64,000 nucleotides of DNA from Mobula hypostoma (lineage: Eukaryota): assembly GCF_963921235.1 (NCBI RefSeq), contig NC_086108.1:5394001-5458000 (forward strand), given 5' to 3'. Position 1 is the first letter of the stretch. Every line of letters begins with the position of its first letter. The notes under the pieces are model-generated. The model saw nothing but the letters and a program-made list of their open reading frames with translations, did no database searches and was not told the origin of the DNA. This document shows, piece by piece, positions 1 through 59,744 of this stretch. Made by a program: the position numbers and the translations under genes.

Positions 1-2143
1 AGTCTGTGGCCGAGCTTCGGCAGCTGTCGGAGTATTGTGATTTCGGAGCGGTGTTGGAAGACATGCTCCGTGATCGATTGGTAAGCGGCATTAATAATGA
101 CGGCACAACGCCGCCTGTTAGGGGAAACCCCACCACTGACTTTCAAGAAAGCCTTAGAGATTGCCCAAGGCATGGAGATGGCTGGTAATAATGTCAAGGA
201 TATCCAGAAAGGACATGGGGGGTGGCAGTCAGTGTCAGGAGGGAGACTGGTAAACAGGCAAAGCGGGTGGAATGTTTCCGGTGTGGAGGGACGCACTGTG
301 CAAATGATTGCAAATTCAAAGACACCGTCTGCCGTGCTTGTAGCAAAAAGGGACATTTCGCTAAAAAGTGCAGAAGTTCAAAGGGTAAGATTAAGCCTGG
401 ACAGAGGAAAACTCAACAGGCTAGGGCAGCCACACACCATCTAGAAGAAGCAGATGAAGAGACCGCGTGTGCCTACAACGTGTTTGCAGTGGAAGGAGAT
501 GAGGAACCACCTGAACCATATTATGCCACAGACACTGTCAGGGGAAAGGACATTAAGTTTGAGATTCATTCATGAGACTCACCCAGGAGTGTCTCAAATG
601 AAAAGCCTTGCAAGATCCTACGTTTGGTGGCCAAGAATGGATCAGGATCTGGAGAACAAGGTAAAATCATGCACGCAATGTCAGACTAATCAGAAAATGC
701 CATCACCAGCTCCTTTGCATCCATTGGAGTGGCCAGACCACCCCTGGTCTAGGCTACATTTGGACTTTGCTGGCCCTTTTATGGGGCAGATGTTTCTTGT
801 AATGGTAGTTGCACATTCTAAATGGATCTAAGCTCACTTCATGAGCAACATCACAGCCCCCTCAACCACAGACAAACTCAGGCAAGTGTTTGCTGTCCAC
901 GGGTTGCCTGACACTCTGGTCACTGATAATGGCCCAATGTTCATCAGTGAGATGTTCAGTGAGTTCGTGCAGCAGAATGGCATTCATCACATTCGGACAG
1001 CCCCTTTCCACCCAGCCTCCAATGGTTTGGCTGAGCGGGCTGTTCAGACAGTGAAGGAAGGCCTGAAGCGGATGACAGGGGACTCTCTTAGCATTCGGCT
1101 TTCCCATTTCCTGTTTAAATACCGCCTCACGCCACAGACTATGACTGCCCGCACTCCAGCAGAGATGCTGATGGGGCGTAGGCCCAAGCCAAGATTGGAC
1201 CTGCTGCGCGCAGACATGAAGGCGAAAGTGAAGAGAAAGCAGGAAAAGCAGAAGGAGAGACATGATCAACATGTGCGAGAGAGACAATTAAAACCGGATG
1301 ACAATGTCTATGTGAGAAACAATCAGCAATGGCTGCCTGGGGTTACTCTTAAGCAGAGTGGTCCCGTCTCCTATGTTGTTAAGCTGACTGATGAACGTGT
1401 TTTCCACAGACATCAGGACCATGTGCGCCTGCGTCATGATACCGGCTTAGAGGCAGACAGTTCCATGGAGTTTCCATTTGCGAGACAGACTATGGTGAAA
1501 GCATGTCCACCAGTGACTTTGCCAGAGGGCGAGACGCTGGCAGAGGGGTTGGGGTCCCCTGAGGAGGATGGACATTCTCACGCAGACACACAGACCCCTC
1601 TCATTCCCCAACACCAGACCCACTCAAAACACCCTCACCAGCGGTGCCTGCTGGGTCACCGGGGGTAGTGCGCAGATCACAGCGCACTCGTAAACCTCCT
1701 GACAGACTGAGTCTTCGATGGGACAGTTCTTTTTGCTGTTGTTAGATTGAATGTTGAATCTGTCATGTTTTCCAGGTGTTTTGTATTGGTAAACTGTTGC
1801 TGAGATACTAGTATAAGTTTTCAGGGGTACACAAGTTAATAACACCACTGTTTTTATTTCCTAGGTTTTACATTTGGGGAATGTAGGATTTTAAAGCGGG
1901 AGAAGTGTTGTAATCTGAGCATTATTAAAAGTAAGTAAGTTAATACTAATTAGGATAATGGTGGGGGGGGGGTTCACTTCTGTTCTTTTTACTTCCAGTG
2001 TGCTCTGTGTATAGTGTTCCTGCCATGCCATACAGGTTGTAAAAGCCTCTGTATATAAATGACGGTTTTGACGTTCGAGATAAAGTGGCTTCTTTGGGCG
2101 TGAAGTTGTCTAGTGTGCCTTTTTCAAAGTAGAAGTTACCACA
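1..2143 (+). mobile_element. Gypsy/Ty3 LTR retrotransposon, internally deleted (gag end, integrase, PPT, 3' LTR)
   Basis: Gag segment LRDRLVSGI; two zinc knuckles (CFRCGGTHCANDC, CRACSKKGHFAKKC); integrase HHCC (HETHPG...CTQC) and DDE (LHLDFAGP, VTDNG, NGLAER). Frameshifts, a stop at 829-831, and no RT/RNase H. Confidence 0.92.
1906..2143 (+). repeat. 3' LTR of the Gypsy element
   Basis: Polypurine tract AAAGCGGGAGAAG (1893-1905) directly followed by TGTTGTAA; ends TTACCACA (imperfect inverted termini); TATATAAA at 2052-2059. Confidence 0.8.
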
Positions 2144-3744: not shown

Positions 3745-4244
3745 TCCTGAGATTCATTTTTCCTGCGGGCATACTCAATAAATCCATAATATAATCAATG
3801 AAGGTCCGCACCAACTTGGGCATTGTTATTACAATTTTTACAAGAAAGAACAAAAAATAACGAAGACCATTGTAGTGCAAAGTGTTGCTGTACTGAGGCA
3901 GTGATTAGGCTTGTGCCGGATGGTTCAGGAACCAAATGGTTGAAAGGAATTAGCTGTTTCTGAACCTGGTGGTGCGACTTGAGGCTTCTGTAGCTCCTGC
4001 CCAAAAGGGAGCTGTGCGAGGACGGGATGGCCTCAATGGTGAAGATCTTTGATGATGGATGTTGCCTTCTTAAGAGATCTTGACCTAGATCAGGGTTTTG
4101 CAACCTTTCCTATGCCATGGAGCCATACCATTTACCGAGGGGTCCGTGGATCTCAGGTTGGACAAGCCCTCTTCTACAGAGTGGAAGTAGGCAGAGGCCA
4201 GGAATTGATCAGTCAGGGCCACAGGAGCTGGGAATAGGGAATAG

Positions 4245-4500
4245 GCAGCTTGGTAGTGTACCGGTTAGCACAACCGCTTTGCAGCATCAGCCTCCACCTA
4301 TGAGAGTTCAGTTCCCATCGCTGACTGTAAGGAGTTTGCATGTTCTAGTCACGGGTTTCCTCTGGGTGCTCTGGTTTTCTCCCACATTCCAAAGATGCCT
4401 GGGTTAGGGTTGGGTTAGGAAGTTATGGGAATGCTACGTTTGCATTAGAAGCGTGGCGACAGCTGTCCCCAGCACAATCCTTGGACTGCATTGGTCATTG
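4245..4500 (+). mobile_element. tRNA-derived V-SINE/HE1-like SINE, degenerate
   Basis: A/B-box-like head followed by V-domain-like GGGTTTCCTCTGGGTGCTCTGGTTTTCTCCCACATTCCAAAGA. Confidence 0.6.
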
Positions 4501-6714: not shown

Positions 6715-7220
6715 TGTTACGTGCGGGTGTTTCCTTGTCGGTGGAAAGCCGCTTCCGTCGTGCCGGTCATCGACGGGCCCGTTTGAAGGATGCGGCAGCT
6801 CTTTCCCATTGGTCACCTTGTGTGTTGCGGCTCCGGTGTCCGGTGTCCGGTTTCCGGCACCTCAGGGTATGAGAATAGCAGGTGGGGGAGGCTCGGTCTC
6901 TCGGCACCTCAGGGTATGAGAATAGCAGGTGGGGGAGGCTCGATCTCTCTGCTTTTGTCTCCAGGCCGCTCCTCACAGTGAGGTCGTGACCGGTGCTGAA
7001 GGGCCACTGGGAAGGTACGCTCAGACACAGAAGGCCCGTGCGCACTCTTAGCAAAGTATCTGATTGTTGAACATTTAGTTTTGTAGTCTGTGTAACTTTG
7101 GGGAGACTTGGATGTTTGGTCGAATCTTTTACTGTTGGTAAATAAATGATTAATATGCTTATTCGTAGTCAGTGTTTTCTGTCTCACTCACCAAACCCGT
7201 GATCCTGCTTCCATGGTACA
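6715..7220 (+). mobile_element. Candidate solo LTR (~506 bp, CpG-rich) with an internal 2x47-bp duplication
   Basis: Starts TGTTAC, ends GGTACA, AATAAA at 7141; interrupts a LINE-tail repeat unit; 47-bp repeat at 6855 and 6902. No clean TSD. Confidence 0.55.
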
Positions 7221-7500
7221 CTGGTTCAGGAGCCTGATGGTTGTGGGGTAATAACTGTTCCTGAACCTGGTGGTGTGGGACCTGAGGCTCATTGTGGTGA
7301 GTGAAGTTATCCACACTGGTTCAGGAGCCTGATGGTTGTGGGGTGATAACTGTTCCTGAACCTGGCGGTGTGGGACCTGAGGCTCATTGTGGTAGTAGTG
7401 AAAAGAGAACATGGTCTGGATGGTGGGAGTGGGGGTCCTTGATGATGGATGCTGCTTTTCTGTGGCAGTGCTCAACGTAGATGTACTCAATGGTGGGGAG
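7218..7500 (-). repeat. Rex1/Babar-like LINE tail with ~2 copies of the 95-bp unit (7218-7393)
   Basis: Reverse complement of the same unit; continues beyond the candidate LTR at ~6560-6710. Confidence 0.8.
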
Positions 7501-7784: not shown

Positions 7785-7975
7785 CACGCACCCACCTAGC
7801 TTCACCTATCACCTTCCAGCTATCTTCCTTCCTCTCCTCCCATCTTTCTATTCTGGCATCTTCTCCCTTCCTTTCCAGTCCTGAAGAAGGGCCTCGGCCC
7901 GAGACGTTGACTGTTTACTCATTTCCGTCGGTGCTGCCTCACCTGCCGAGTTCCCTCGGCATTCTGTGCGTAATT
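7785..7975 (+). mobile_element. Penelope-like element terminal repeat with a degenerate hammerhead motif (7876-7913)
   Basis: cagtc CTGAAGA agggcctcggccc GAGA cgtt gactg (GAAA mutated to GAGA). Confidence 0.7.
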
Positions 7976-8564
7976 TGAATATGGCTCGTTGTTGATCTGA
8001 GTGCAGTGGGGGATATTCCCATCTCTTTATGTACATCTTGGACCTGGTAAGTAAGAATGAAATTGCTGATACAGTTGGAAAATAATAACTTGTGGCTTTA
8101 ATTACAATCCAGCTGACACAATAACCACTGGAAATGTTAGTGAGTTGCCACCCATTTCAAGCCCATGTGAGCTGTAATTACAGTGTTCTCTACCGCCACA
8201 GTCTCATTAAGCCATTAATCTATCGATAAATATTGTGTTCCTTTGTCAGTCAGAGCTCTGTATACACAGATACACGTCTCCACCACGGGTGTAGAGCAGT
8301 GCAGAGACACCGACGCATCCTCCACACCGCCAGACATAAACACCAGCACTGTCAATGTGCCTTCTCCCATCCTTTATCAGTATTATTTTGTCTTGTTTTC
8401 TCTTTTCCGTATTTGCACAGTTTCTTGTACTTTGTACACTAACTGTTTGTTCGTCTTTGATGTGTCTGGTTTTTCACTGACGCTATTTTCTTTCTTTGTA
8501 CTTACTGTGAATGCCCACAAGAAAATAAATCTCAGCATTCTATATGGTGATATATTTTAGTTAC

Positions 8565-15009: not shown

Positions 15010-15275
15010 ACACAAACATTCTACAGATGCTGGAAATCCAGAGCAACACACACAAAATGCTGGAGGAGCTCAGCAGGTCAGACAGCATCTACGGAGGGGA
15101 ATAAACAGTCGACATTTTGGGCCGAGATCCTTCTTCGGGACTGAGAAGGAAGGGGAAGATGCCAGAATAAAAAGATGGGGGTAGGGAAGGAGGCTAGCTG
15201 GAAGGTGATGGGTGAAGCCAGGTGGGTGGGAAAGGTCAAGGGCTGGAGAGGAAGGAATCTGACAAGAGAGGCCAC
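15010..15275 (-). mobile_element. Penelope-like element terminal repeat with a degenerate hammerhead (15106-15143)
   Basis: Reverse complement reads cagtc CCGAAGA aggatctcggccc AAAA tgtc gactg. Confidence 0.7.
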
Positions 15276-21686: not shown

Positions 21687-21720
21687 GTAACCTCATTGAA
21701 AACTATCAAATGGTGAAAGG

Positions 21721-22034
21721 CAAACACGAGGAAATCTGCAGATGCTGGAATTTCAAGCAACACACATCAAAGTTGCTGGTGAACGCAGCAGGACAGGCAG
21801 CATCTGTAGGAAGAGGTACAGTCGATGTTTCGGGCTGAGACCCTTCATCAGGACTAACTGAAAGAAGAGATAGTAAGAGATTTGAAAGTGGGAGGAGGAG
21901 GGGGAGATCCAAAATGATAGGAGAAGACAGGAGGGGGAGGGATGGAGCCAAGAGCTGGACAGGTGATTGGCAAAAGGGATATGAGAGGATCATGGGACAG
22001 GAGGCCCAGGGAGAAAGAAGGGGGGAGAGGAGAG
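21721..22034 (-). mobile_element. Penelope-like element terminal repeat with 13-bp TSD
   Basis: AAATGGTGAAAGG at 21708-21720 and 22035-22047; same repeat as the one downstream of the GIY-YIG-like ORF end at ~57 kb. Confidence 0.8.
21819..21856 (-). ncRNA. Minimal type I hammerhead ribozyme motif (both core boxes intact)
   Basis: Minus strand: uAGUC-CUGAUGA-aGGGU cuca GCCC-GAAA-c-AUC-GACUg. Stems I and II pair; the helix-III palindrome is ACAU rather than ACGU. Confidence 0.7.
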
Positions 22035-22409
22035 AAATGGTGAAAGGATTTGATATAGTATATGTGGAGAAAATGTTTCTAATGGTGGGAAAGTCTAGGA
22101 CCAGAGGACACAGCCTCAGAATAGAGGGGTGTCCTTTTAGAACAGAGATGAGGAGGAATTTCATTTAGCCAGTGAGTGATGAATCACAGCTGGCTAATGA
22201 CAGGCAGCTGTGGAGGCCACTTCTTTTTGTATATTTAAGTCCGAGGTTGATAGATTCTTTATTGATCAGTGTATAAACAGATATGGGGAGAAAGCAGGAG
22301 ATTGGGGCTGAGAGGAAAATTGGATCAGATATGTTGAAATGATGGAGCAGACTCAATGGGCCAAATGGCCTAATTCTGCTCCTACATCTTCTGTTCTTAT
22401 GGTCTTATT

Positions 22410-24716: not shown

Positions 24717-27143
24717 ATAGAAACATAGAAAATAGGTGCAGGAGTAGGCCATTCGGCCCTTCGAGCCTGCACCGCCATTTATTATGATCATGGCTGATCA
24801 TCCAACTCAGAACCCCGCCCCAGCCTTCCCTCCATACCCCCTGACCCCTGTAGCCACAAGAGCCATATCTAACTCCCTCTTAAACATAGCCAATGAACTG
24901 GCCTCAACAGTTTGCTGTGGCAGAGAATTCCACAGATTCACCACTCTCTGTGTGAAGAAGTTTTTCCTAATCTCGGTCCTAAAAGGCTTCCCCTCTATCC
25001 TCAAACTGTGACCCCTCGTTCTGGACTTCCCCAACATCGGGAACAATCTTCCTGCATCTAGCCTGTCCAATCCCTTTAGGATCTTATACGTTTCAATCAG
25101 ATCCCCCCTCAATCTTCTAAATTCCAACGAGTACAAGCCCAGTTCATCCAGTCTTTCTTCATATGAAAGTCCTGCCATCCCAGGAATCAATCTGGTGAAC
25201 CTTCTTTGTACTCCCTCTATGGCAAAGATGTCTTTCCTCAGATTAGGGGACCAAAACTGCACACAATACTCCAGGTGTGGTCTCACCAAGGCCTTGTACA
25301 ACTGCAGTAGTACCTCCCTGCTCCTGTACTCGAATCCTCTCGCTATAAATGCCAGCATACCATTCGCCTTTTTCACCGCCTGCTGTACCTGCATGCCCAC
25401 TTTCAATGACTGGTGTATAATGACACCCAGGTCTCGCTGCACCTCCCCTTTTCCTAATCGGCCACCATTCAGATAATAATCTGTTTTCCTATTTTTGCCA
25501 CCAAAGTGGATAACTTCACATTTATGCACATTAAATTGCATCTGCCATGAGTTTGCCCACTCACCCAACCTATCCAAGTCACCCTGCATCCTCTTAGCAT
25601 CCTCCTCACTGCTAACACTGCCACCCAGCTTCGTGTCATCCGCAAACTTGGAGATGCTGCATTTAATTCCCTCATCCAAGTCATTAATATATATTGTAAA
25701 CAACTGGGGTCCCAGCACTGAGCCTTGCGGCACCCCACTAGTCACTGCCTGCCATTCTGAAAAGGTCCCGTTTATTCCCACTCTTTGCTTCCTGTCTGCT
25801 AACCAATTCTCCACCCACACCAATACCTTACCCCCAATACCGTGTGCTTTAAGTTTGCACACTAATCTCCTGTGTGGGACCTTGTCAAAAGCCTTTTGAA
25901 AATCCAAATATACCACATCCACTGGTTCTCCCCTATCCACTCTACTAGTTACATCCTCAAAAAATTATATGAGATTCGTCAGACATGATTTTCCTTTCAC
26001 AAATCCATGCTGACTTTGTCCGATCATTTCTCCGCTTTCCAAATGTGCTGTTATCACATCCTTGATAACTGACTCCAGCAGTTTCCCCACCACCGATGTT
26101 AGGCTAACCGGTCTATAATTCCCTGGTTTCTCTCTCCCTCCTTTTTTAAAAATTGGGGTTACATTAGCCACCCTCTAATCCTCAGGAACTAGTCCAGAAT
26201 CTAACGAGTTTTGAAAAATTATCACTAATGCATCCACTATTTCTTGGGCTACTTCCTTAAGCACTCTGGGATGCAGACCATCTGGCCCTGGGGATTTATC
26301 TGCCTTCAATCCCTTCAATTTACCTAACACCACTTCCCTACTAACATGTATTTCACTCAGTTCCTCCATCTCACTGGACCCTCTGTCCCTTACTATTTCG
26401 GGAAGATTATTTATGTCCTCCTTAGTGAAGACAGAACCAAAGTAATTATTCAATTGGTCTGCCATGTCCTTGCTCCCCATAATCAATTCACCTGTTTCTG
26501 TCTGCAGGGGACCTACATTTGTCTTTACCAGTCTTTTCCTTTTTACATATCTATAAAAGCTTTTACAGTCCGTTTTTATGTTCTCTGCCAGTTTTCTCTC
26601 ATAATCTTTTTTCCCCTTCCTAATTAAGCCCTTTGTCCTCCTCTGCTGAACTCTGAATTTCTCCCAGTCCTCAGGTGAGCCACTTTCTCTGGCTAATTTG
26701 TATGCTACTTCTTTGGAATTGATACTATCCCTAATTTCTCTTGTCAGCCACGGGTGCACTACCTTCCTTGATTTATTCTTTTGCCAAACTGGGATGAACA
26801 ATTGTTGTAGTTCATCCATGCAACCTTTAAATGCTTGCCATTGCATATCCACCGTCAATCCTTTAAGTGTCATTTGCCAGTCTATCTTAGCTAATTCACG
26901 TCTCATACCTTCAAAGTTACCCCTCTTTAAGTTCAGAACCTTTGTTTCTGAATTAACTATGTCACTCTCCATATTAATGAAGAATTCCACCATATTATGG
27001 TCACTCTTACCCAAGAGGCCTCTCACGACAAGATCGCTAATTAACCCTTCCTCATTGCTCAAAACCCAGTCCAGAATAGCCTGCTCTCTAGTTGGTTCCT
27101 CAACATGTTGGTTCAAAAAACCATCCCGCATACATTCCAAGAA
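24717..27143 (-). mobile_element. Young 5'-truncated CR1 LINE (ORF2 broken by small frameshifts)
   Basis: ORFs 26175-27191, 25965-26171 and 24807-25940 (KFADDTK); near-identical to 45149-47672; possible TSD GAAT. Confidence 0.95.
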
Positions 27144-28120: not shown

Positions 28121-28293
28121 TACAAACATACAGACCCCTTACATCGCCAGCAGCATATGTGAATCAGATCGTTACTGCAGTGCCACTTCTATGCAGATCA
28201 CTGGATTCAAAGTCTAGAGTGCTGATCCATTACTATGTTGAAGATTAAAACACAAACCAGTGCTGTAATAAGTTGCACTTTACAATCTTGTGT

Positions 28294-28462
28294 CAACACA
28301 CACAAAATGCTGGAGGACCTCAGCTGGGCAGGCAACATCAATGGAGGGCTGGGATCCTTCACTCAACATGAAATGTCAGCTGTTCAGTCATCTCCACCGA
28401 TGCTGCCTGGCCTGCTGAGTTCTTCCAGCAACTTGTGTGTGTGGCTCTGGATTCCCAGCACC
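28294..28462. mobile_element. Fold-back (inverted) Penelope-like terminal repeat
   Basis: ACACACAAAATGCTGGAGGACCTCAGC... / ...GCTGAGTTCTTCCAGCAACTTGTGTGT inverted arms. Confidence 0.65.
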
Positions 28463-34609: not shown

Positions 34610-35520
34610 GGTTCCATTCTCAAGAACAGAGAAGTCTACAGAAATTGGTGGACACAGCCCAGTCCATCACAGGAAAATCGCTCCCCACCTTTGAGCACAT
34701 TTATGAGGAGCACTGCCCCAAGAAATCAGCATCCATCATCAAGGACCCCCACCACCCAGGCTGTGCTTTCTTCTCGCTGCTGCCATCGGGCAGGAGGTAC
34801 AGGAGCCTCAGGTCCCACACCACCAGGTTCAGGAACAGTTATTACCCCACAACCATCAGGCTCCTGAACCAGTGTGGATAACTTCACTCACCACAATGAG
34901 CCTCAGGTCCCACACCACCAGGTTCAGGAACAGTTATTACCCCACAACCATCAGGCTCCTGAACCAGTGTGGATAACTTCACTCACCACAATGAGCCTCA
35001 GGTCCCACTTCACCAGGTTCAGGAACAGTTATTACCCCACAACCATCAGGCTCCTGAACCAGTGTGGATAACTTCACTCACCACAATGAGCCTCAGGTCC
35101 CACACCACCAGGTTCAGGAACAGTTATTACCCCACAACCATCAGGCTCCTGAACCAGTGTGGATAACTTCACTCAGCACAATGAGCCTCAGGTCCCACAC
35201 CACCAGGTTCAGGAACAGTTATTACCCCACAACCATCAGGCTCCTGAACCAGTGTGGATAACTTCACTCACCACAACTCTGAACTGATTCCACAAACTAC
35301 AGACTCACTTTCAAGGACTCGATAACTCACGTTCTCAGCATTTTTAAAAAATCTGCACAGTTTGTCTTTTTTTCGCACATTGGCTGTTTGTCAGTCTTTG
35401 CTTGTGTATAGTTTTTCATAAATGCTGTTGTATTTCTTTATTTTCCTGTAAATGCCTGCAGGAAAAGGAATCTCCAGGTGACACGTACGCAGTGTGATGA
35501 CAAGTTTACTTTGACTTTGT
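34610..35520 (+). repeat. Rex1/Babar-like LINE tail with 5 tandem 95-bp units (34803-35276)
   Basis: IIKDPHHPGCAFFSLLPSGRRYRSLRSHTTRFRNSYYP; units at 34803, 34898, 34993, 35088 and 35183. Confidence 0.93.
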
Positions 35521-38175: not shown

Positions 38176-38238
38176 TAATCTATTGATATGGAGCTGTAAA
38201 AGGTCAGGAAGATCTATGAAGCAACATTTCATCTATCT

Positions 38239-38410
38239 CAGTCAACGCTTTTGGCCTAGATCTTTCATTAAGACCCTTCGACAGTCTTGATGAATGGTCT
38301 CAGTCCAAAACGTCAACTGTTTATTCCTCTCTACAGATGCTGCCTGGCCCGCTGAGTTCCTCCAGCATTTTGTGTGTGTTGCTCTGGATTCCCAGCATCT
38401 GCAGGCTCTC
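38239..38410. mobile_element. Penelope-like ends with two oppositely oriented degenerate hammerheads
   Basis: Minus-strand copy at 38239-38274; plus-strand cagtc TTGATGA atggtctcagtcc AAAA cgtc aactg at 38282-38319. Confidence 0.6.
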
Positions 38411-38554
38411 TCATTCACCTGAAGTATTTTTTCTTGTTTGAGGTGGCAGTAGGACTCCTTTTCCCTGAGGTAGGGAGGGTGAGGAGGAGGTTTGGGTGAA
38501 ATCAGCAGAACTGCCACTCAATAACTTCTCCTTGTTTGCAGTGTTCCTCATATG

Positions 38555-39230
38555 TACACTCAGTTGTCACTTTGTTAGGTACATCCTGTACCTTATAAAG
38601 AGGCTACTGAGTGTATGTTCGTCGTCTTCTGCTGCTGTAGTCTCTCCACTGCAAGGTTCAACATGTTGTATGTTCAGAGATGCTGTTCTGCACACCACTG
38701 GTGTAACGTGTGGTTATTTGAGTTACTGTCACCTTCTTGTCAGCTTGAACCAATCTGGCCATTCTCCTCTGACCTCTCTCATTGACAAGGTGTTTTTGCC
38801 CACAGAACTGCTTCTCACTGGATTTTTTGTTTGTTCTTCACACCATTCTCTGTAAATTGTGGAGATTTCTGCATGTGAAAATCCCAGAAGATCAAAGTTC
38901 AAGGATCAAAGCAAAAATTATTATTGAAGTACATGTATGTCACCATATACAACCCTGAGAGTCATTTCCCTGTGGACACACTCAGTAAATTAATAAATAG
39001 TAACTACAACAGTTTCAATGAAACTTGGCAGATTCTGGAATACTAAAACCATCCTAGCTGGCACCAACAATCATTCCACAGTCAAAGGCACTTAGATGAC
39101 AAATCTTCCCCATTCTAATCTTTGGTCTGAACAACAACTGAACCTCTTGACCATGTCTGCATGCTTTTATGCATTGAGTTGCTGCCACGTGATTGGCTGA
39201 TTAGATTTTTGCATAAATGAGCATTAGACA
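38555..39230 (-). mobile_element. Tc1-like remnant (interrupted)
   Basis: Reverse complement of the 3190-3470 and 22410-22860 family. Confidence 0.7.
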
Positions 39231-39811
39231 ATGTGGACAATGTGGACAAGTGGACAATGATTGTAAATTTTCACGATAATCCCTATTGCTCAATCCCACA
39301 CCGTTTTCTGATGTCACTTGGAGGCACCCCCAATGTGTCACCCTTTCCCTTTTATCCAAAAAGAGTTTAATCAAGCTGGGCTTACTCTCCCAGCACTGGC
39401 CCACTATGTCCCTCTGTTTCTGTGAGGCAGCTCATCGGGACTTTGGGATCATAGAGTCATGGAGCATTACTTTTAGCCCATCTAGTCAGTGCTGAACTAT
39501 TATCCTACCTGGTCTCATCAGCGTGGGGCTGTACCACAGTGGTATGGAGGCCGGCTGGAGATACGGCACTTCTCAACCAAAGGAAAGGTAAGGAGCTCCT
39601 TCCCACTGCTAGCCTTCCGTTCACCCTTGTTGCATCTGCTTAGCCCAAGTGAAGCCATGAGAGCAGGTGGTGGATGGTCGTATGAGCAGCCGGTGCAGAT
39701 CACAAGTCCTGGTTGTGCGACCACTGACCCCAGGCAGACAGTCTCTGAAGAGTATTGATAATGGCTGGGGTCACCCGTCTTGTAAAGGCACTGCCCAGAA
39801 GAAGGCAATGG

Positions 39812-39997
39812 CAAACACGAGGAATTCTGCAGATGCTGGAAATTCAAGCAACACACATCAAAGTTGCTGGTGAACACAGCAGGCCAGGCAGCATCTCTAG
39901 GAAGAGGTACAGTCGACGTTTCAGGCCGAGACCCGGGTTTCGGCCTGAAACGTCGATTGTACATCTTCGTAGAGATGCTGCCTGGCCTGCTGCATTC
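39812..39997. mobile_element. Fold-back Penelope-like end forming a 126-bp palindrome (39872-39997)
   Basis: 63-bp arms, no spacer, centre ACCC|GGGT at 39934/39935; direct repeat AGAAGGCAATGG(CAAA) at 39800 and 39998. Confidence 0.85.
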
Positions 39998-40884
39998 AGA
40001 AGGCAATGGCAAATCATTTCTGCAGGAAAATTTACCAAGAACAACCATGGTAATGGGACGACCATGATTTCCTACAAATAAGACATGATGATGATGATGA
40101 TGATGACCATAGCCCCCTATACCCCTCCCATCCATGTACACAAACTTCTCTTAAATGTTGCCTTTGAACCCGCTTCCATCACTCACCACCCTCTATGTGG
40201 TTCTTCCTCATGTTCCCCTTAAATATTTCACCCTTAACCTATGACCTCTAGGACTAGTCTCACCCGACCTCAATGGACTAAGTCTTCTTGCATTTACCCT
40301 ATCTATACCCCTCATAATTTTGCATATCTCTATCCAATCTCCCCTCATTCTCCTACGGTCCAGGGAATAAAGTCGGAATCTATTCAGCGTTTCTCTATAA
40401 CTCAGATCCTCAAAGTCCCAGCAACATCATTGTAATTTATTTTTCTGTATTCTTTGAATCTTATTGATATTCTTCCTGAAAGTAGATGACCAGAACAAGG
40501 TAAATCATCAAAATTTCCAAGTATATTTAATCTCTTCTCAGGAATAAAGAAAACCTATAGAATGATAGAGACATCAAAGCCCAGAAGCCACCTCTCCCAC
40601 CACTCCTCCCCTTCACACAAGCAGTAGCAAAAGCCTCCATCACAGCCAAGCCTGATATTGGTCAAACCTCAAGTCTGCAAACTGAATGGATGAATCATCT
40701 AAATAGGACATTTCAGTAAGGAAAGTCACAATAGGTCTATGTAATGAAAACCTACATCATGGGGGAAATTACAGGAGAGGGAAGTAGTACTTAATGAATA
40801 TTACAGGGAGGGAGATTATTGTGGGCCACATTAGATAAGAACATTACAGTGAGAGGCTTTACTGTGAGACACATTACATCTAGG

Positions 40885-41700
40885 CCATGGTCTTTTCTCA
40901 CTGCTGCCATCAGGAAGGAGGTACGGCAGCCTCAGGTCCCACACCACCAGGTTCAGGAACAGTTATTACCCCACAACCATCAGGCTCCTGAACCAGGGGG
41001 GATAACTTCACTCACCACAATGAGCCTCAGGTCCCACACCACCAGGTTCAGGAACATTTATTACCCCTCAACCATCAGGCTCCTGAACCAGTGTGGATAA
41101 CTTCACTCACCACAATGAGCCTCAGGTCCCACACCACCAGGTTCAGGAACAGTTATCACCCCACAACCATCAGGCTCCTGAACCAGTGTGGATAACTTCA
41201 CTCACCACAATGAGCCTCAGGTCCCACACCACCAGGTTCAGGAACAGTTATTAACCCCACAACCATCAGGCTCCTGAACCAGTGTGGATAACTTCACTCA
41301 CCACAATGAGCCTCAGGTCCCACACCACCAGGTTCAGGAACAGTTATTACCCCACAACCATCAGGCTCCTGAACCAGTGTGGATAACTTCACTCACCACA
41401 ATGAGCCTCAGGTCCCACGCCACCAGGTTCAGGAACAGTTATCACCCCACAACCATCAGGCTCCTGAACCAGTGTGGATAACTTCACTCACCACAATGAG
41501 CCTCAGGTCCCACACCACCAGGTTCAGGAACAGTTATTACCCCACAACCATCAGGCTCCTGAACCAGTGTGGATAACTTCACTCACCACAACTCTGAACT
41601 GATTTTACAATCTAAAATACAAGGACTCTACAACTCATGTTCTCAGTATTTTTTTAATTATTATTTTTGTTTCATTGTAACCTTTTTTGTATTTGTTCAA
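40885..41700 (+). repeat. LINE tail with 7 tandem 95-bp units (40927-41591)
   Basis: Units at 40927, 41022, 41117, 41212, 41308, 41403 and 41498. Confidence 0.95.
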
Positions 41701-41719: not shown

Positions 41720-42325
41720 ATCACCAAATACTACCCGGAGATTAATTTCCTTGTGGACATTCACAATAAATAGAAAGAAACACAATAGAATCAATTAAAA
41801 TACACTCTCAACAGAGATGGACAAACAACCAATGTGCAAATTATAACAAAATCTGTAAATGTAAAAAGAAAAGAAAAGAATAATAATAATAATAAATGTA
41901 TAAGCAATAAATATTGAAAACATGAGTTGCAGAGTGAGTCTATAGGTTGTGGAATCAGTTCAGAGTTGTGGTGAGTGAAGTTATCCACACTGGTTCAGGA
42001 GCCTGATGGTTGTGGGGTAATAACTATTCCTGAACCTGGTGGTCTGGGACCTGAGGCTCATTGTGGTGAGTGAAGTTATCCACACTGGTTCAGGAGCCTG
42101 ATGGTTGTGGGGTAATAACTGTTCCTGAACCTGGTGGTGTGGGACCTGAGGCTCATTGTGGTGAGTGAAGTTTTCCACACTGGTTCAGGAGCCTGATGGT
42201 TGTGGGGTAGTAACTGTTCCTGAACCTGGTGGTGTGGGACCTGAGGCTGCTGTATCTTGATCCCGATGGCAGCAGTGAGACGAGAGCATGTCCTGGGTGA
42301 TGGAGGTCATTGATGAAGGAAGCAC
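41720..42325 (-). repeat. LINE tail with 3 tandem 95-bp units (41966-42248)
   Basis: Reverse complement of the same unit, preceded by HPGHALVSLLPSGSRYSSLR. Confidence 0.93.
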
Positions 42326-44424: not shown

Positions 44425-44672
44425 GCTATTCCTTCTTCACCTTTCCTGCCTATCCCCTCCCTGCTTCCCCTCCCCCACCCCTTTATCTTTCCCCTTACTG
44501 GTTTTTCACCTGGAACCTACCAGCCTTCTCCTTCCCACCCTCCCCACCTTCTTTATAGAGCCTCTGTCCCTTCCCTCTACAGTCCTGACGAAGGGTTCCG
44601 GCCTGAGGCATCAACCGATCTTTTCCACGGATGCTGCCCGACCTGCTGAGTTCCTCCAGCATGTTGTGCGTT
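44425..44672 (+). mobile_element. Penelope-like terminal repeat with a degenerate hammerhead (44580-44617)
   Basis: cagtc CTGACGA agggttccggcct GAGG catc (GAAA box lost). Confidence 0.65.
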
Positions 44673-45148
44673 TTACTGTAATTGATTTACTTATTTATTT
44701 ATTATTATTATTTATTTGTTTTCTTCTATATTATGTATTGCATTGAACTGCTGCTGCTTACAACAGATGCTGGTGATAATAAACCTGATTCTGAAGTCAA
44801 AAAGTAAACGATACTGTATGTGCTATTGGCACTTCATGGGCGAAGAGATCCGATGGTGGCAGGGAGTTCAGTAGTTTCACAGCCTGGGGGAAGAAGCTGT
44901 TTTTCATCCTAACAGTCCTTGTCCCAGCACTAACCCTAGCCTTCTTGCCTGATGGCAGGGGGTTAAAGAGGTTGTTTAATGGATGGGAAGTTGTCATGAT
45001 GAATATCTCAGATGGGTAAAAGAGAGACCCCAGATGATCCTCTCAGCAGATGAGAAAGATCTAAGGGGGACCTGGCACAACTTTTTCCTGCAACATGCAG
45101 AGGGTGGTGTGGAAATGGAACAGCCTCCCTGGGGAAGTGGTTGAAATT

Positions 45149-47672
45149 AGGAAATTAGAAATGTGTGCAATAAAGGAACAGCAGTTATAATGGGTGACTT
45201 CAATCTACATGTAGATTGAGTGAACCAAATTGGTAAAGGTGCTGAGGAAGAGGATTTCTTGGAATGTATGCGGGATGGTTTTTTGAACCAACATGTCGAG
45301 GAACCAACTAGAGAGCAGGCTATTCTAGACTGGGTTTTGAGCAATGAGGAAGGGTTAATTAGCAATCTTGTCGTGAGAGGCCCCTTGGGTAAGAGTGACC
45401 ATAATATGGTGGAATTCTTCATTAAGGTGGAGAGTGACATAGTTAATTCAGAAACAAAGGTTCTGAACTTAAAGAGGGGTAACTTTGAAGGTATGACACA
45501 TGAATTAGCTAAGATAGACTGGCAAATGACACTTAAAGGATTGACGGTGGATATGCAATGGCAAGCATTTAAGGATTGCATGGATGAACTACAACAATTG
45601 TTCATCCCAGTTTGGCAAAAGAATAAATCAAGGAAGGTAGTGCACCCGTGGCTGACGAGAGAAATTAGAGATAGTATCAATTCCAAAGAAGAAGCATACA
45701 AATTAGCCAGAGAAAGTGGCTCACCTGAGGACTGGGAGAAATTCAGAGTTCAGCAGAGGAGGACAAAGGGCTTAATTAGGAAGGGGAAAAAAGATTATGA
45801 GAGGAAACTGGCAGGGAACATAAAAACTGACTGTAAAAGCTTTTATAGATATGTAAAAAGGAAAAGACTGGTAAAGACAAATGTAGGTCCCCTGCAGACA
45901 GAAACAGGTGAATTGATTATGGGGAGCAAGGACATGGCAGACCAATTGAATAATTACTTTGGTTCTGTCTTCACTAAGGAGGACATAAATAATCTTCCCG
46001 AAATAGTAGGGGACAGAGGGTCCAGTGAGATGGAGGAACTGAGCGAAATACATGTTAGTAGGGAAGTGGTGTTGGGTAAATTGAAGGGATTAAAGGCAGT
46101 TAAATCCCCAGGGCCAGATGGTCTGCATCCCAGAGTGCTTAAGGAAGTAGCCCAAGAAATAGTGGATGCATTAGTGATAATTTTTCAAAACTCGTTAGAT
46201 TCTGGACTAGTTCCTGAGGATTGGAGGGTGGCTAATGTAACCCCACTTTTTAAAAAAAGAGGGAGAGAGAAACCGGGGAATTATAGACCGGTTAGCCTAA
46301 CATCGGTGGTGGGGAAACTGCTGGAGTCAGTTATCAAAGATGTGATAACAGCACATTTGGAAAGCGGTGAAATCATCGGACAAAGTCAGCATGGATTTGT
46401 GAAAGGAAAATCATGTCTGACGAATCTCATAGAATTTTTTGAGGATGTAACTAGTAGAGTGGATAGGGGAGAAACAGTGGATGTGGTATATTTGGATTTT
46501 CAAAAGGCTTTTGACAAGGTCCCACACAGGAGATTAGTGTGCAAACTTAAAGCACACAGTATTGGGGGTAAGGTATTGATGTGGATAGAGAACTGGTTAG
46601 CAGACAGGAAGCAAAGAGTGGGAATAAACGGGACCTTTTCAGAATGGCAGGTAGTGACTAGTGGGGTACCGCAAGGCTCAGTGCTGGGACCCCAGTTGTT
46701 TACAATATATATTAATGACTTGGATGAGGGAATTAAATGCAGCATCTCCAAGTTTGTGGATGACACGAAGCTGGGCGGCAGTGTTAGCTGTGAGGAGGAT
46801 GCTAAGAGGATGCAGGGTGACTTGGATAGGTTAGGTGAGTGGGCAAATTCATGGCAGATGCAATTTAATGTGGATAAATGTGAAGTTATCCACTTTGGTG
46901 GCAAAAATAGGAAAACAGATTATTATCTGAATGGTGGCCAATTAGGAAAAGGGGAGGTGCAACGAGACCTGGGTGTCATTATACACCAGTCATTGAAAGT
47001 GGGCATGCAGGTACAGCAGGCGGTGAAAAAGGTGAATGGTATGCTGGCATTTATAGCGAGAGGATTCGAGTACAGGAGCAGGGAGGTACTACTGCAGTTG
47101 TACAAGGCCTTGGTGAGACCACACCTGGAGTATTGTGTACAATTTTGGTCCCCTAATCTGAGGAAAGACATCCTTGCCATAGAGGGAGTACAAAGAAGGT
47201 TCACCAGATTGATTCCTGGGATGGCAGGACTTTCATATGAAGAAAGACTGGATGAACTAGGCTTGTACTCATTGGAATTTAGAAGATTGAGGGGGGATCT
47301 GATTGAAGTTCTAAAGGGATTGGGCAGGCTGGATGCAGGAAGATTGTTCCCGATGTTGGGGAGGTCCAGAACGAGGGGTCACAGTTTGAGGATAGAGGGG
47401 AAGCCTTTTAGGACCGAGATTAGGAAAAACTTCTTCACACAGAGAGTGGTGAATCTGTGGAATTCTCTGCCACAGCAAACAGTTGAGGCCAGTTCATTGG
47501 CTATGTTTAAGAGGGAGTTAGATATGGCCCTTGTGGCTACGGGGGTCAGGGGTATGGAGGGAAGGCTGGGGCGGGGTTCTGAGTTGGATGATCAGCCATG
47601 ATCATAATAAATGGCGGTGCAGGCTCGAAGGGCCGAATGGCCTACTCCTGCACCTATTTTCTATGTTTCTAT
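45149..47672 (+). mobile_element. Young 5'-truncated CR1 LINE with a 793-codon ORF2 remnant (45220-47601)
   Basis: APE C-terminus (LDWVL, SDH) and complete RT ([32 protein letters not shown]); tail TTTCTATGTTTCTAT. Confidence 0.96.
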
Positions 47673-48049: not shown

Positions 48050-49490
48050 TACCATTGGCATGGGTCGAGATTGTGGTGTGCACCATCGCCTGTACCTTGC
48101 TGAGTGTCATAATGAACAACAGCGGATATTAGCGTGTAGTAATGGGTCGGCTGATCTGGACCGCAGCCGTCTCCAGTTACTTTCTATATATGTTATTTCA
48201 TTTTGTAGGGCAACACGCGTAGGAGCGGAACTAACGTGTTGCCGCGGCTTGGCCCTCGAATCGGTAAAGTTCTTTCTGCATACAACTGGTTTATTTACAG
48301 GCATCCTGCGGCGTTCCCGACGGTGGTATACGATTAAGATCGCAGCTCTTTTCTGCCAGAGGCCTTGCAATGGGTGATGTACCGGGTGGTCTGGGGTGCG
48401 TGGGGATGCAGAACACACCTTTACACGGTGACATCCCCAAAGCCCAGTATTCTCGAGATGTCATTCCACATATCCCCGGTGCAGGGATGCCTGTGGAATC
48501 TTCGTACATTTCCACGAGTTCTCCAAGAACCCGTCCGCAATATCGCGTTGAAATTCCTTTTCGAAGACGAGGTCTAACCCGGTTATCGGATCAATCGTAA
48601 TATAAATATTGAGAGCGCTGCTGGGAGGTACACTGTACACCACCCAGCTTTAACGGGTAAACTGTGAGATGATAGTTTTGCAATGGTCGCCTCCAAAATA
48701 AAGCTGACCTCAGGGGTATTTTAAGGGCTTGATGGATTCGTAGAGGTCGTGCTAAAGGGGTGTTTACAACCGGCAAACTCGGGTGAATGAGATGACAGCA
48801 CTCACCCGCCAAACTATCGTAGCAGTCGATTTCGGTGCTCTCGATAAGTCGATTCTGCTCCTCCGTCAATCTACCGCGTCCTTTGCGCAGATCGCTCACG
48901 TCTTCGCCCCGAGCTTCACCGATCCGGATCCCCTTGAGTTGCAACAACGCCCGGTGGTACTTGCCAATCGCCTCGCGGAATTTCTTCTCCCGGTAACATT
49001 GATTCCCCTCGATCTTGAAGCACACGGCTCTCTGGATCTTGCAACCGTTGTCGCTCTCGCTCTCTCCTTGGTGGGCTGCCGGGTTCCTGGGATCTGGCAG
49101 CCCCGCCGGACCCCGGAAAGGGTCCCGGGAGCTGGCCGGTGACTGACTCCCTCCCCTCGCTCCTATCCGTGACTGTCGCTGACCAATGCTCCCCCCGCCT
49201 ATGCCTTGAGCTTTTAGGGAATATCTGCTTTCCATTCCGCCTACAGGCGCACCATTCTTTGCAAGATCGGAAACCTGTCGCCTTTTGATGGTCTGTAACA
49301 GTTTGCTGTGCATATATATGAGCGATCGCTCCGGCGGGTTGAAACCCTGTAACTGGCGAGCTGTTTGCGAAGCGAGCTGTCCTTCAGCACCGTGGACAGC
49401 GCAAGCTCACACCGGGCTCGCGTGCTGCAGCGGCGCCCGTTTCTCCCGCTTAACCCTTAAAGGCGTTTCTGTTTAACCCGCCCACTCTCT
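48050..49490. promoter_or_regulatory. CpG island over the TTC9B promoter, exon 1 and start of intron 1
   Basis: Non-repetitive, visibly CpG-dense sequence in an otherwise CpG-poor window. Confidence 0.7.
48806..49313 (-). CDS. TTC9B: Tetratricopeptide repeat protein 9B-like, coding exon 1
   Basis: KIQRAVCFKIEGNQCYREKKFREAIGKYHRALLQLKG...LTEEQ...EIDCYDSLA is the TTC9 family signature; ATG at 49313; phase-1 donor G|GTGAG at 48806/48805. B paralogue inferred from CYDSL and the C19orf47 neighbour. Confidence 0.88.
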
Positions 49491-49495: not shown

Positions 49496-49529
<34 letters not shown>

Positions 49530-49789
49530 ACACACACAGAGACACACACACACACACGGACACACACACACACACACACACACAGACACACACACACACA
49601 GACACACACACACACACACACACACAGACACACACACACACACACAGACACACACACACACACACCCACACACGCACACACACACACACACACGGACACA
49701 CACACAGACACACACACACCCACACACACAGACACACACACACACACACGCGGACACACACACACACACACACACACACGGACACACAC

Positions 49790-49830
<41 letters not shown>

Positions 49831-49929
49831 CACACACAGACACACACACACACGCGGACACACACGGACACACACACACACACAGACACACACACACACA
49901 CACAGACACACACACACACGGACACACAC

Positions 49930-49970
<41 letters not shown>

Positions 49971-50165
49971 CACACACAGACACACACACACACGCGGACA
50001 CACACGGACACACACACACACAGACACACACACACACACACACACACACGGACACACACACAGACACACACACACCCACACACACAGACACACACACACA
50101 CACACACGGACACACACGGACACACACACACACACACACACGCGCGGACACACACGGACACACAC

Positions 50166-50204
<39 letters not shown>

Positions 50205-50225
50205 GACACACACACACACACACAC
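49496..50225. repeat. ~730-bp compound (CA)n microsatellite with GA/GGA/CGCGGA interruptions
   Basis: Directly visible. Confidence 0.98.
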
Positions 50226-52619: not shown

Positions 52620-52850
52620 TTGAGACTAGAATTTTAACAAAGACCAAGGTCTCGCTTGAAGTAAGAACTGGAATTCGATTGTAAACAGGGTGGAACAGCG
52701 CACACCTGATTGGATGAGGACTAATCAATCAGGAGGGACGGGGGTATCTATACCCCCGGAGTAGACATGCCTAGGCATCAGCCCTGATGAAGATGGCAGG
52801 GTTTGTCATTGCAACATCGGTTCAAGTGACAATAGACACAGGAATGTCTG
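52620..52850 (+). mobile_element. Penelope-like element of a second family: GIY-YIG C-terminus + degenerate hammerhead (52780-52822)
   Basis: NFNKDQGLA*SKNWNSI, then agcc CTGATGA a gatggcag ggt ttgtcatt GCAA catc ggtt. Confidence 0.65.
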
Positions 52851-55701: not shown

Positions 55702-56874
55702 ATATTTCTCTTCCGATATCATAGATTTGTGGAGCCATTAGTGTAACATGCTTCATTTTGGAATGGTTAACTCAATTACTGCTTCAGCTTGATTTCAAAA
55801 ATATGTTATAAAATATTAAGTCTGTGCCTGGTCACATGACGTAGCACAGTGGTCGCCACTTTTGCTTTGAAGTCAACGTTTAAGCTGCAATCTGACTCAT
55901 GACAAAAATCCAGGCTGTGATCTCAGCACGGAACAGCGTTTAGGGCAGCAATGAAGGTCCTCCATCTCTGTATAGGAGGAATCTTCATTGCTGTTTCTGT
56001 AATAATTGATTTTTTGACCAGTCAGGGTTGCTAGCCCTGAGTTGAACCTCCAAACCCAAAGAACTGGTGGACCACTCTGAGTCTGTCCTCTACCCTTTGA
56101 CCTGTTTGGCATGAATAACCCAACCAAGAGCTAAAGCATAAAGCCCTGACTCCAGCCAACATAGCTCTCCAGATGATTGAGTCACACAAGGTTGTGGTCT
56201 TCTTGGAGCAGATAAAGTACTGAAACAGCATTATTCTGAATAAAGTGCATGCGGGTAACACGCTCAGAAGGCTGGATGAACTCAGCAGGTCAGGTAGCAT
56301 CTTTGGAAAGGGAATAAACAGTTGATGTTTGGGCTGAGACCCATCTTCATGACTGGGGACTCTATAGATACTGCCTGGCCTGCTGTGTGTTGCTCTGAAT
56401 AAGCTAGCATTTCAATTGGCGAAGTTCGGGTTGGTCAACAACCCTTTGAAGGATCTGACAAGTGCACAAGCTTCCAGCACATTTAGCAGTTCAGGCAACA
56501 CCTAGGCAGGGAAATGGATGGTCAATATTTCCGATTTGGACTGAGACAGAATCCAGATGGAGGGTCTCAACTTGTAACGTTGACCATCTATCTCCTTCCG
56601 TTCATGTTGCCTGACCTGCTGAGTTCTTCTGGCATTTTGTGTGTGTTAATCTGGAATACTACCATCTGTAGAATTTCTTGTGTTTATGAAGTGCATGGGG
56701 GAAGGTCTTTGGTCTGTAGAACTGACATTTCTCTCTCAACCAATATCACTTAGGTGGGTATGTTGGTCAGTACTGACAGGTTGGGTTGAAAGGCCAGTTT
56801 CCATGTTTTGTTATTCTATGATCACTAAAGCAGATTATCTGAGCAGAGCACCTTCGCTCCATCCACAAAAATTG

Positions 56875-57380
56875 GATTTTGCAGTCACCAGCCAGTCTCC
56901 ACTCCCATTCTGACATGTCAAAACATGGCCTCTTCTACTGCTATAACGAGGCCAGACTCAGGATAGAGGAGCAACACCTCATATCCCATCTGGGTAGCCT
57001 CCAACTTGATGGCATGAACATCATTTCCTCTAACTTCCAGTAATTTTCTCCCCTCCCCTATTCAATTCCTCACTCTTACTTCTCTTCTCCTCACCTGCTT
57101 ATCCCTTCCTCCTTCCCTTTCTCCTATCTTCTCAGATTCCTTCTTCTACAGCCCTTTACCCATCATCTCCAACTTCTTAGTTCATTCTCCATCCCCTTCA
57201 CTTATCACCTTTCAGCTTGTACTTCTTCCCCTCCACTACCCACAAACTTTCTTGCTCTGGAATCTTCCCCCTTCCTTTCCAGTCCTGATGAAAGGTCTCG
57301 GCCAGAAACATTGAGTCTTTATTGCACTTCACAGATGCTGCCTGACCTATTAGGTTCCTCCAGCATTTTCCATGTGTTTA
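56875..57380 (+). mobile_element. Penelope-like element 3' end: ORF C-terminus, pyrimidine-rich UTR, hammerhead
   Basis: GLFYCYNEARLRIEEQHLISHLGSLQLDGMNIISSNFQ* resembles the C-terminus of PLE GIY-YIG domains and runs into the terminal repeat. Confidence 0.78.
57280..57317 (+). ncRNA. Minimal hammerhead ribozyme motif (core boxes intact, stems eroded)
   Basis: cagtc CTGATGA aaggtctcggcca GAAA catt gagtc. Confidence 0.55.
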
Positions 57381-57564
57381 TCTGACCATTATTACGACAG
57401 TGGAACCTTTAACTGCCATATTTCCCACATTAACAAGAAGCTGGGAGATTATAAAGTTGCATTTTCACATCTTTCTTTGAAGCTTTCTGCTGCTTTTTTT
57501 TGGTTAGAGTTGTGGTAGTGATGTTAGCAAGTGACTATGCTGGATGCCAGGTCCCCAGGAATCC

Positions 57565-58190: not shown

Positions 58191-59744
58191 AAAAGTTGTA
58201 TAATGAGCACACATTAATGTATACTAAGCACACATCAACCATTCTGGGATGGATGCTTGATCAAAATCCCAACTCCACCTGGCTATCTCGCCTGCAGCTT
58301 CTCGAGAAAGCAGTGAGACAACTATTAAAGAACAAAAACTAATCTAGAAAATACCAGGATTCACTTTATTTATTTGGGGCACTATAACACTTAATTGGGA
58401 CAAGAGACTGTTGCCAAACCATTCCTAACTAGCGTCAGTCACATATATTTATTTATTGAAGGTTGGAGGCCCAATATTTATTTATTGATTAGATACAATG
58501 CGAAATAGGCCCTTCTGTTCCTTTCAGCAATTCTCCGATTTATTTCTCGCATAATCACAGGACAATTTAAAATGACTGATTAACCTACAAATCAGTAGGT
58601 CTTTGGACTGTGGGAGAAAACCAGAACACACTAAGGAAACCTACATGGTCATGGGGAGAAGTTACAAACTCCTTGCAGGCAGCAGTGGGAATTGAACCTG
58701 GGTCTCCTGTACTGTAATGCATTATATGTTGACTATGCTACCACATGTGGCCATATGACACTAACTATACTGTGCTTTGAGCGAAAAGTTTTTTAATAGC
58801 ATCAGTTGTATGTGTTTGTGTTTAAAAAGTGATTTTTGTCACTAATAGCTAGCAAGAAATAATCAGTAAGGCAATTCAGGACTGTTTTGCTCACCGTGGT
58901 TTCAAACATTCAGGCTTGGAGAAGCCAGAGAGAAAATGAAATGATTTCACTACTTCAACTTGAAGAATTTGAAAGTATTGGCAATCATCTTGAATGTTAC
59001 AATAAATAATGAACATTTGGAGAATGCAATTGTACGCATTGTATGAAGGCAGTCCAGACATCTGTACCAGGTGTCTGCACTGATTTTTTAGTCAATCACA
59101 AGAATACGGTAGCATACACTGGATGAATTCCTCCGTCGAGAACAATGAACTAATATAGTTTTATAGAACTGCAGTAGTATTGGTAGTGTTGTAATATGTT
59201 CTGCATTTCATTTAAATACATAAATTATTACCGTTTGTCTTTTTTAAATACCTTTTTAGCGATTTCCATGAAATTTTGGCTAACTGTGATAGCCATTTAA
59301 TTAGCCAAAATGTATTGGTCCCTATGTGTCTCAATTAACCGGAACCTACTGTAGCTCCATCCCACCGTCAATGCCAAAATCAGAGAGAAATGAACATAGG
59401 ATGTTGTAAGCAATATCTCTGCTTAATGTGCCTGTAACATCATGCAAGACCGGCCTGAATATTACACTTGGATGACAGACGCTGGAATCTGTAGTAATAC
59501 ACAAGGACTTGGCAGGTCAGACAACATCCGAGGAAGGAAATGGATGGTCAATGGTGCAGATCTACAGTTGTTGGGACTCAAAGCATCGACTGTCCATCTC
59601 CATCACAGATGCTGCCTGACCAGCTGAGTTTCGTGTCCTTTCTGTGTTACTGAATATTAATCTTGTCCAGTTTGAGTGAAGGTAGGATGTTTTAAGCAAT
59701 ATCTCCATTTAATATGCATATATCATAAAAGACTGGCCTGAATA

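Follow-up and report, generated by a model that had tools for sequence, protein, structure and literature searches.

The window analysed here, the whole 64,000-nt stretch of the Mobula hypostoma genome, contains the first coding exon of TTC9B on the minus strand (48807..49313), which over 169 aa has 100% identity with a Mobula TTC9 protein and is followed by a GT donor. The remaining 92 residues of the protein (170-261) have no match in the window; therefore, intron 1 probably comprises positions 1-48806, and a repeat copy on the minus strand at 21721..22034 would stand in sense orientation to the gene. The earlier note had proposed this orientation, and it is probable on the assumption that the gene runs beyond the window. 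A 730-bp (AC)n microsatellite (49496-50225) lies just upstream of TTC9B exon 1, and an exon with a DUF5577 domain at 61887-62459(-) (PF17740, E 4e-28) belongs to a neighbouring gene that lies upstream of TTC9B and shares its strand.

The copy at 21721..22034 is one of a dispersed family carrying a minimal hammerhead ribozyme motif. The motif had been reported at nine sites, and direct reading finds it at every one of them (7876-7913(+), 15106-15143(-), 21819-21856(-), 38239-38276(-), 38282-38319(+), 44580-44617(+), 56319-56355(-), 57280-57317(+), and two half copies joined at 39934/39935); all nine are copies of one repeat. A profile built from nine copies gave 20 matches at E<=5 in the window and none on the reversed window. 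The 17 matches (arms) kept at E<=1e-3 fall into 11 loci, which cover about 4% of the window at one locus per 5.8 kb, a density that supports the earlier estimate of about one per 7 kb; the loci at 28292-28462, 56483-56676 and 59476-59663 are additions to the earlier list. Three weak profile matches, at 14516, 33781 and 50628 (E 0.006, 0.026 and 0.68 among the three), were left out of the locus count.

Five loci are solitary copies. The copy at 21721..22034(-), of subfamily A, is the 5'-truncated 3' end of a Penelope-like element (PLE) and consists of 178 nt of pyrimidine-rich 3' untranslated region (UTR), the minimal hammerhead and a 98-nt tail. Subfamily B is represented by 7800..7988(+), whose hammerhead (7876-7913) carries A14>G, and by 15017..15271(-), whose hammerhead (15106-15143) carries U4>C and G12>A. 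The solitary copy at 44525..44690(+) has A14>G and A15.1>G in its hammerhead (44580-44617), and 57041..57391(+) is the 3' UTR, hammerhead and tail of a copy that also bears an open reading frame (ORF); its hammerhead (57280-57317) has an intact core, 3/5 pairs in stem I, 3/4 in stem II and U at position 17. The other six loci are head-to-head inverted pairs, insertions of about 150-210 bp with 0-17 nt between the arms. Both arms of the pair at 39812..39997 start at the same base, the first of stem II, with the junction at 39934/39935 and a hairpin z-score of -14. At 38201..38408 the arms start at the edge of stem I, at 38276(-) and 38282(+), and both cores are broken; at 56250..56402 the minus arm starts at stem I (56355) and the plus arm in the tail (56360); the pair at 56483..56676 is joined at the hammerhead (56546(-) and 56550(+)); and the decayed pairs at 28292..28462 and 59476..59663 are joined inside it.

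Target-site duplications (TSDs) of 12-13 bp, earlier taken to be general among these ends, are real at two of the 11 loci, but exact duplications were found only there. A 13-bp duplication (21708..21720 and 22035..22047, plus strand) flanks 21721..22034, and one of 12 bp, up to 16 with microhomology (39800-39811 and 39998-40009), flanks the pair at 39812..39997. Flanking repeats of at least 12 bp arose by chance in 8 of 500 random placements, and 51 of 200 random placements pass a search that allows two mismatches. Candidates of 8-10 bp at three further loci were dropped as chance-level or internal. When the insertion 21721..22034 is removed, the joined flanks align with a different CR1 copy through the junction (70% over 167 nt, E 2e-15), therefore the element inserted into an older CR1 LINE remnant.

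The hammerhead of this copy spans 38 nt (21819..21856, minus strand) and agrees with the published consensus of minimal type I hammerheads. All 11 core letters are intact, in CUGAUGA (21851-21845) and GAAA (21831-21828). The flank pairing as stem I and the 4-bp stem II described earlier are complete here, with 5/5 pairs in stem I (21856-21852 with 21823-21819) and 4/4 in stem II (21843-21840 with 21835-21832). The pair G10.1-C11.1 is G21843-C21832, an unpaired A at 21844 stands between A9 and stem II, and C17 is position 21824, which places the predicted cut between 21824 and 21823. Public sequencing runs were aligned to 21690-22070, giving 130,733 contig pieces in X1 and 9,740 in X14, where depths are sums of contigs and not copy counts; the raw-read runs X21 and X22 gave 2 and 0 reads. 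The reduction of helix III to an ACGU palindrome is correct for the family, being found in 3 of 8 scored window copies and, through the G that forms it, in 62% of X1 depth, but not for the 21819 copy, whose remnant is CA-U (ACAU instead of ACGU). Since most of the X1 depth has the G, the ACAU of this copy is decay.

A strict descriptor of the minimal type I hammerhead matches the window only at 21819-21856 (C3 at 21851), and any match at all appeared in just 1 of 200 dinucleotide shuffles. With one mismatch allowed, the core pattern by itself gave four matches, a number also reached by 8 of 100 shuffles, so that alone it is not significant. Core, stems and type I topology come together fully at 21819-21856, and the 57280 site has the core with damaged stems. 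An Rfam scan of the window returned five matches at E<=5, none of them a hammerhead, and the Rfam hammerhead models, which describe the canonical type I form, recognise no site in the window. Across nine copies the stem partners are paired at 82%, versus 12-44% for slid partners. The nine aligned, decayed copies contain no two-sided stem change, 233 of 500 shuffles pair equally well, and one C-G to U-G stem change separates the subfamilies; thus, with no two-sided covariation, it is the resemblance to the known motif and the slid-partner control that support the structure.

A relaxed descriptor that gives 0.1 matches per shuffle found a second hammerhead-like motif of the minimal type, belonging to another family, at 52780..52822(+). 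It is a single copy with an 8-bp stem II and the same core with one change, and it shows no sequence similarity to the main repeat family. A short broken peptide lies about 120-160 nt upstream (to about 52620), which may resemble a Penelope/Poseidon endonuclease end. Another match of the relaxed descriptor, at 45242, was taken as chance, being inside a CR1 ORF. Pattern scans for further copies gave no matches in metagenome contigs, viral contigs or prokaryote genomes.

Minimal hammerheads (min-HHRs) in pseudo-LTRs of metazoan PLEs were described in 2014 by Cervera and De la Pena, who in coelacanth and Xenopus reported copies by the thousand, most of them single (PMC4209133). The ray motif shares with them CUGANGA-H, a stem II that opens with G-C, GAAA, the CG remnant, UH and a short stem I, together with the unpaired base before stem II, the G10.1-C11.1 pair and the palindromic helix III remnant of their Fig. 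S3 (PMC4209133). Also common to both are the position after a PLE ORF, the predominance of dispersed single copies and some pairs on opposite strands (PMC4209133). The layout of a 4-bp stem II with a 4-nt loop occurs in the Acropora Neptune min-HHR, and 4 bp is at the short end of the published range of stem II (PMC4209133). The extracted text of Table S1 and Fig. S3 of that paper names no cartilaginous fish (PMC4209133). The ray pairing of hammerhead and PLE is a further host lineage for an arrangement known since 2014.

The parent element can be recognised from the copy at 57 kb. The GIY-YIG-like ORF end that had been noticed ahead of it is real: the last 66 codons of a decayed PLE endonuclease, followed by a stop, occupy 56843..57040(+), and the motif at 57280 begins 240 nt past the stop, so that 56843-57391 runs in the order ORF end, 3' UTR, hammerhead and tail. 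A phmmer search with the 66 aa gave 17 matches at E<=0.001 (best 5.6e-12), and nine of the ten that were looked up are named as ray or shark proteins (Hypanus, Rhinoraja, Leucoraja or Rhincodon); with a Mobula PLE protein the fragment shares 74% identity over 47 aa. A word-based protein search gave 21 candidates, of which none scored, Pfam assigns the fragment to no family, and the GIY-YIG matches in its homologs stay below the cut-off. A search with the homolog P0003 found 314 proteins at E<=1e-20, many with a reverse transcriptase (RT) domain (PF00078) and some with GIY-YIG (PF01541); coral, sea urchin and gar are represented among them. The ray and shark homologs contain YIDD (RT), a CX2-5CxxC linker and YIGET in that order. 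The linker marks Neptune and Nematis and is missing from Penelope/Poseidon (Craig et al. 2021, PMC8557442), and the RT, linker and C-terminal GIY-YIG are shared between the homologs and these EN+ PLEs (PMC8557442). The translated 5' part of 21721..22034 weakly resembles the read-through C-terminus of the ray PLE proteins P0003 and P0018 (E about 5e-5), and the C-terminal peptide of a zebra-shark PLE protein is similar to the translated hammerhead motif (weak, E 0.011). The PLE origin proposed earlier is thus supported by the homology of the ORF end with PLE proteins of rays and sharks that have RT, linker and YIGET. Because the window ORF comprises no more than the last 66 codons, it is the homologs that carry the clade call, which leaves Neptune and Nematis undivided.

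Several minor observations concern the same ORF. Six predicted ray or skate host proteins (P0001, P0004, P0006, P0008, P0012 and P0020) have the PLE endonuclease end spliced onto unrelated genes, among them an ATP synthase subunit and a neuromedin-U receptor; these are likely gene-prediction artefacts from an abundant repeat. A very decayed motif at 50628-50696(-) has CUGACGA, and its stem II of 5 bp is a different one (profile E 0.006); about 500 nt upstream of it a frameshifted remnant like the PLE endonuclease end lies at 51253-51180(-) (tblastn E 7e-4); the two are possibly an older subfamily. At 52330-52490(+), a short peptide that resembles the final residues of the PLE endonuclease is followed by pyrimidine-rich sequence with no motif after it, and seems to be another truncated PLE end.

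Taken together, these data are best explained, with a probability of roughly 0.88 for the explanation as a whole, if the copies are 5'-truncated pseudo-LTRs of a very abundant Neptune/Nematis-type PLE family of rays and sharks, the repeat representing the putative 3' end of that element. The parent element would comprise an ORF for RT and GIY-YIG, a pyrimidine-rich 3' UTR, the minimal type I hammerhead and, last, a tail about 100 nt long. By analogy with work on other PLEs, the element protein would nick the target DNA and, on uncleaved RNA, begin reverse transcription at an internal point about 120 nt beyond stem II; such an internal start would let copies keep the whole ribozyme and the tail. 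Most copies would stop early, and priming from both DNA ends would give inverted pairs. In the master elements the hammerhead probably has weak cleavage activity, either as a dimer formed by the ACGU palindrome or aided by the element protein, and selection would keep it there only, which the evidence indicates indirectly; after insertion, copies would decay neutrally, mainly at CpG. The same joint explanation holds that the 21819 copy is the least damaged through chance and youth, not through maintenance by the host.

This mechanism has a parallel in PAc, a Poseidon PLE of Anolis carolinensis that also has a pseudo-LTR hammerhead (Frangieh et al. 2024, PMC11167929). Reverse transcription of PAc starts 111-118 nt into an ORF whose first base is at stem II, and the template is mainly RNA that has not been cleaved (PMC11167929). 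Its genomic 3' ends lie about 110-120 nt past the start of stem II (PMC11167929); the 3' end of the ray copy lies 123 nt from where stem II starts, and sequence is kept on both sides of the cut site, both as this mechanism predicts. In addition, the PAc protein cuts and extends both DNA strands, which fits the ray inverted pairs, and it is required for the PAc ribozyme to cleave (PMC11167929). However, PAc belongs to a different clade, in which the ORF starts at stem II and reverse transcription starts in an AC-rich loop (PMC11167929); unlike PAc, the ray tail is GU-rich on the sense strand and there is no ATG at stem II. The five solitary truncated copies and six inverted pairs agree with the 5' truncation and inverted 5' copies of Neptune/Nematis EN+ PLEs (PMC8557442).

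The arrangement of the inverted pairs leaves some room for a different role of the motif. All 12 arms start in the motif or right next to it: ten start inside it or at its 5' edge, upstream of the cut site, and in the other two the profile match starts in the tail, in one case after an internal deletion. The five solitary copies, by contrast, continue upstream for at least 55 nt and at most 437 nt. This difference in arm starts has a Fisher p of 0.002, a post hoc value, since the grouping was made after seeing the data and n is small, which weakens it as evidence. The arm starts are not cleavage products, because these would start at G1.1, and the differing 5' ends and inverted junctions among loci indicate separate events. 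The motif may then be a hammerhead by descent that acts here mainly as a non-catalytic structure, as a protein-binding site or an RT stop that sets copy boundaries, a reading that we regard as doubtful but worth keeping in mind. As an RT stop, the hammerhead fold would fix where reverse transcription ends: two cDNAs from the ends of the target break might stall upstream of the cut and join head to head, which we likewise put forward only tentatively. Mutants of the anole PLE ribozyme leave insertion unaffected, and no RNA ends were seen at the cut site (PMC11167929), which favours this reading, but the anole ribozyme cleaves once the protein is added (PMC11167929), and a full catalytic core in two unrelated families of the window is hard to explain without catalysis in master elements. 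For the junctions themselves an RT stop at the fold is our preferred guess; alternatively, the pairs could have lost the centre of longer palindromes after insertion. Opposite-strand motif pairs about 100-700 bp apart were noted in 2014 (PMC4209133), whereas in the ray pairs the junction is at the ribozyme or within it; that PLEs leave inverted 5' copies is known (PMC8557442), and the portions of the PLE literature searched contain no statement on inversion junctions centred on the ribozyme. If the stall reading is true, PLE hammerheads have a non-catalytic role in integration that can be read from junctions in any ray genome. Since cleavage is dispensable in vitro for the anole PLE, this bears on what PLE ribozymes are for; clustering of inversion junctions at the ribozyme genome-wide would suggest that it serves reverse transcription, either instead of RNA cleavage or in addition to it.

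The short units could also be an independent non-autonomous element, SINE-like or a non-LTR retrozyme, spreading as its own RNA or circle. The description of the ends as ORF-less in the earlier note is right in that 10 of the 11 loci lack ORF sequence, which would suit such an element, but these loci are mostly 5'-truncated PLE copies and do not form a separate element. Non-LTR retrozymes, which share type I hammerheads derived from PLE pseudo-LTRs, have been reported in one chondrichthyan, and the supplements of that preprint may name the present family (Li et al. 2026, 10.64898/2026.07.22.740005). However, retrozymes are defined by head-to-tail repetition in which two or more consecutive units contain a ribozyme (10.64898/2026.07.22.740005), and the window has no such tandem of the unit: none of its 13 tandem-repeat rows overlaps the family. 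The variable 5' ends, the one copy that reaches the endonuclease ORF and the differing inverted junctions also argue against independent spread, which we consider improbable. The endonuclease profile finds only the 56843 fragment in the window. The 64 kb contain no full-length element and no paired pseudo-LTRs, which counts against the PLE explanation.

That the 21819 copy is a ribozyme kept by the host to cut TTC9B pre-mRNA in intron 1 is very improbable. It is probably in sense orientation and is the only fully intact motif, but its helix III palindrome is lost (ACAU), and the nearest sense copies (15143, 38276 and 39934), 6.7-18 kb away, are broken or halved. With the palindrome lost and no intact partner, cleavage by this copy is unlikely. 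Its predicted stem I pairing probability falls from 0.55-0.99 in the bare 38-mer to at most 0.07 with at least 121 nt of context. Min-HHRs showed no cleavage as monomers in vitro and low cleavage as dimers (PMC4209133), which counts against single copies. The copy is also young, with a perfect TSD and eight differences in 123 nt from the 39934 arm. In the presumed TTC9B intron the family arms are five in sense and five in antisense orientation, so that the link to TTC9B looks incidental. As a separate observation, 4130-4246(-) matches (56%, E 3e-6) an extra predicted exon of a Hemitrygon TTC9B isoform (P0138), whose peptide contains SPDEG, the hammerhead core read in one frame; this exon is possibly an exonised repeat or a prediction artefact.

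Decay in the other copies shows no sparing of the ribozyme. Hammerhead residue numbering and the catalytic role of G12 are established (for G12, see PMC6155905). Six of the eight scored copies have core mutations. The preferential conservation of CUGANGA and GAAA that the earlier note had proposed as a check is absent from the window copies, with non-CpG substitutions at 11/80 core sites (13.8%), 19/128 stem sites (14.8%) and 5/32 loop sites (15.6%). At CpG columns 30-38% of letters are changed, and the window copies decay neutrally, largely at CpG, including the catalytic G12. In X1, the in-motif variants among those listed are CpG transitions or N7: G12>A 19%, C17>U 11%, G1.1>A 13%, C11.1>U 32% and U/C at N7 48%, with 7-8% at a tail CpG for comparison. 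The largest piles of loose ends in X1, at 21818-21820 (1,933 records) and 21853-21855 (1,876), coincide with the borders of stem I; they mark where the second subfamily leaves register, and the tail is also common to both subfamilies. The hint that dispersed copies are maintained ribozymes is thus unsupported, which corrects the reading of such copies as working host ribozymes. The abundance of the family, with 11 loci in 64 kb and the number of X1 contig pieces given above, makes ray genomes good material for studying PLE hammerhead function.

Chance likeness in an ordinary repeat would fit the missing covariation, the missing Rfam match and the folding z-scores of isolated single motifs (-1.4 to +1.4), but can practically be dismissed given the rarity of the strict match in shuffles, the PLE pseudo-LTR position as published, and the second family with the same core and different stems.

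Other repeats are present in the window. A young 95-bp unit forms dispersed head-to-tail arrays of 2-7 copies with 95-98% identity at the end of another repeat (2242-2437, 7218-7402, 34803-35276, 40928-41591 and 41966-42248), in which the hammerhead descriptor finds no match. Young CR1-type LINE copies at 45220-47601(+), 24717-27143(-) and 54541-55701(-) are 96-98% alike, and in one of them an open frame of 793 codons includes an RT domain. At 192-1668(+), inspection of the ORF list by eye points to an LTR retrotransposon whose gag zinc-knuckle and integrase-like frames are broken. Meanwhile, a hairpin at 38552-38618(+) matches Rfam mir-9256 with 43 bits, versus a gathering score of 80, and is probably a piece of a small inverted-repeat transposon.
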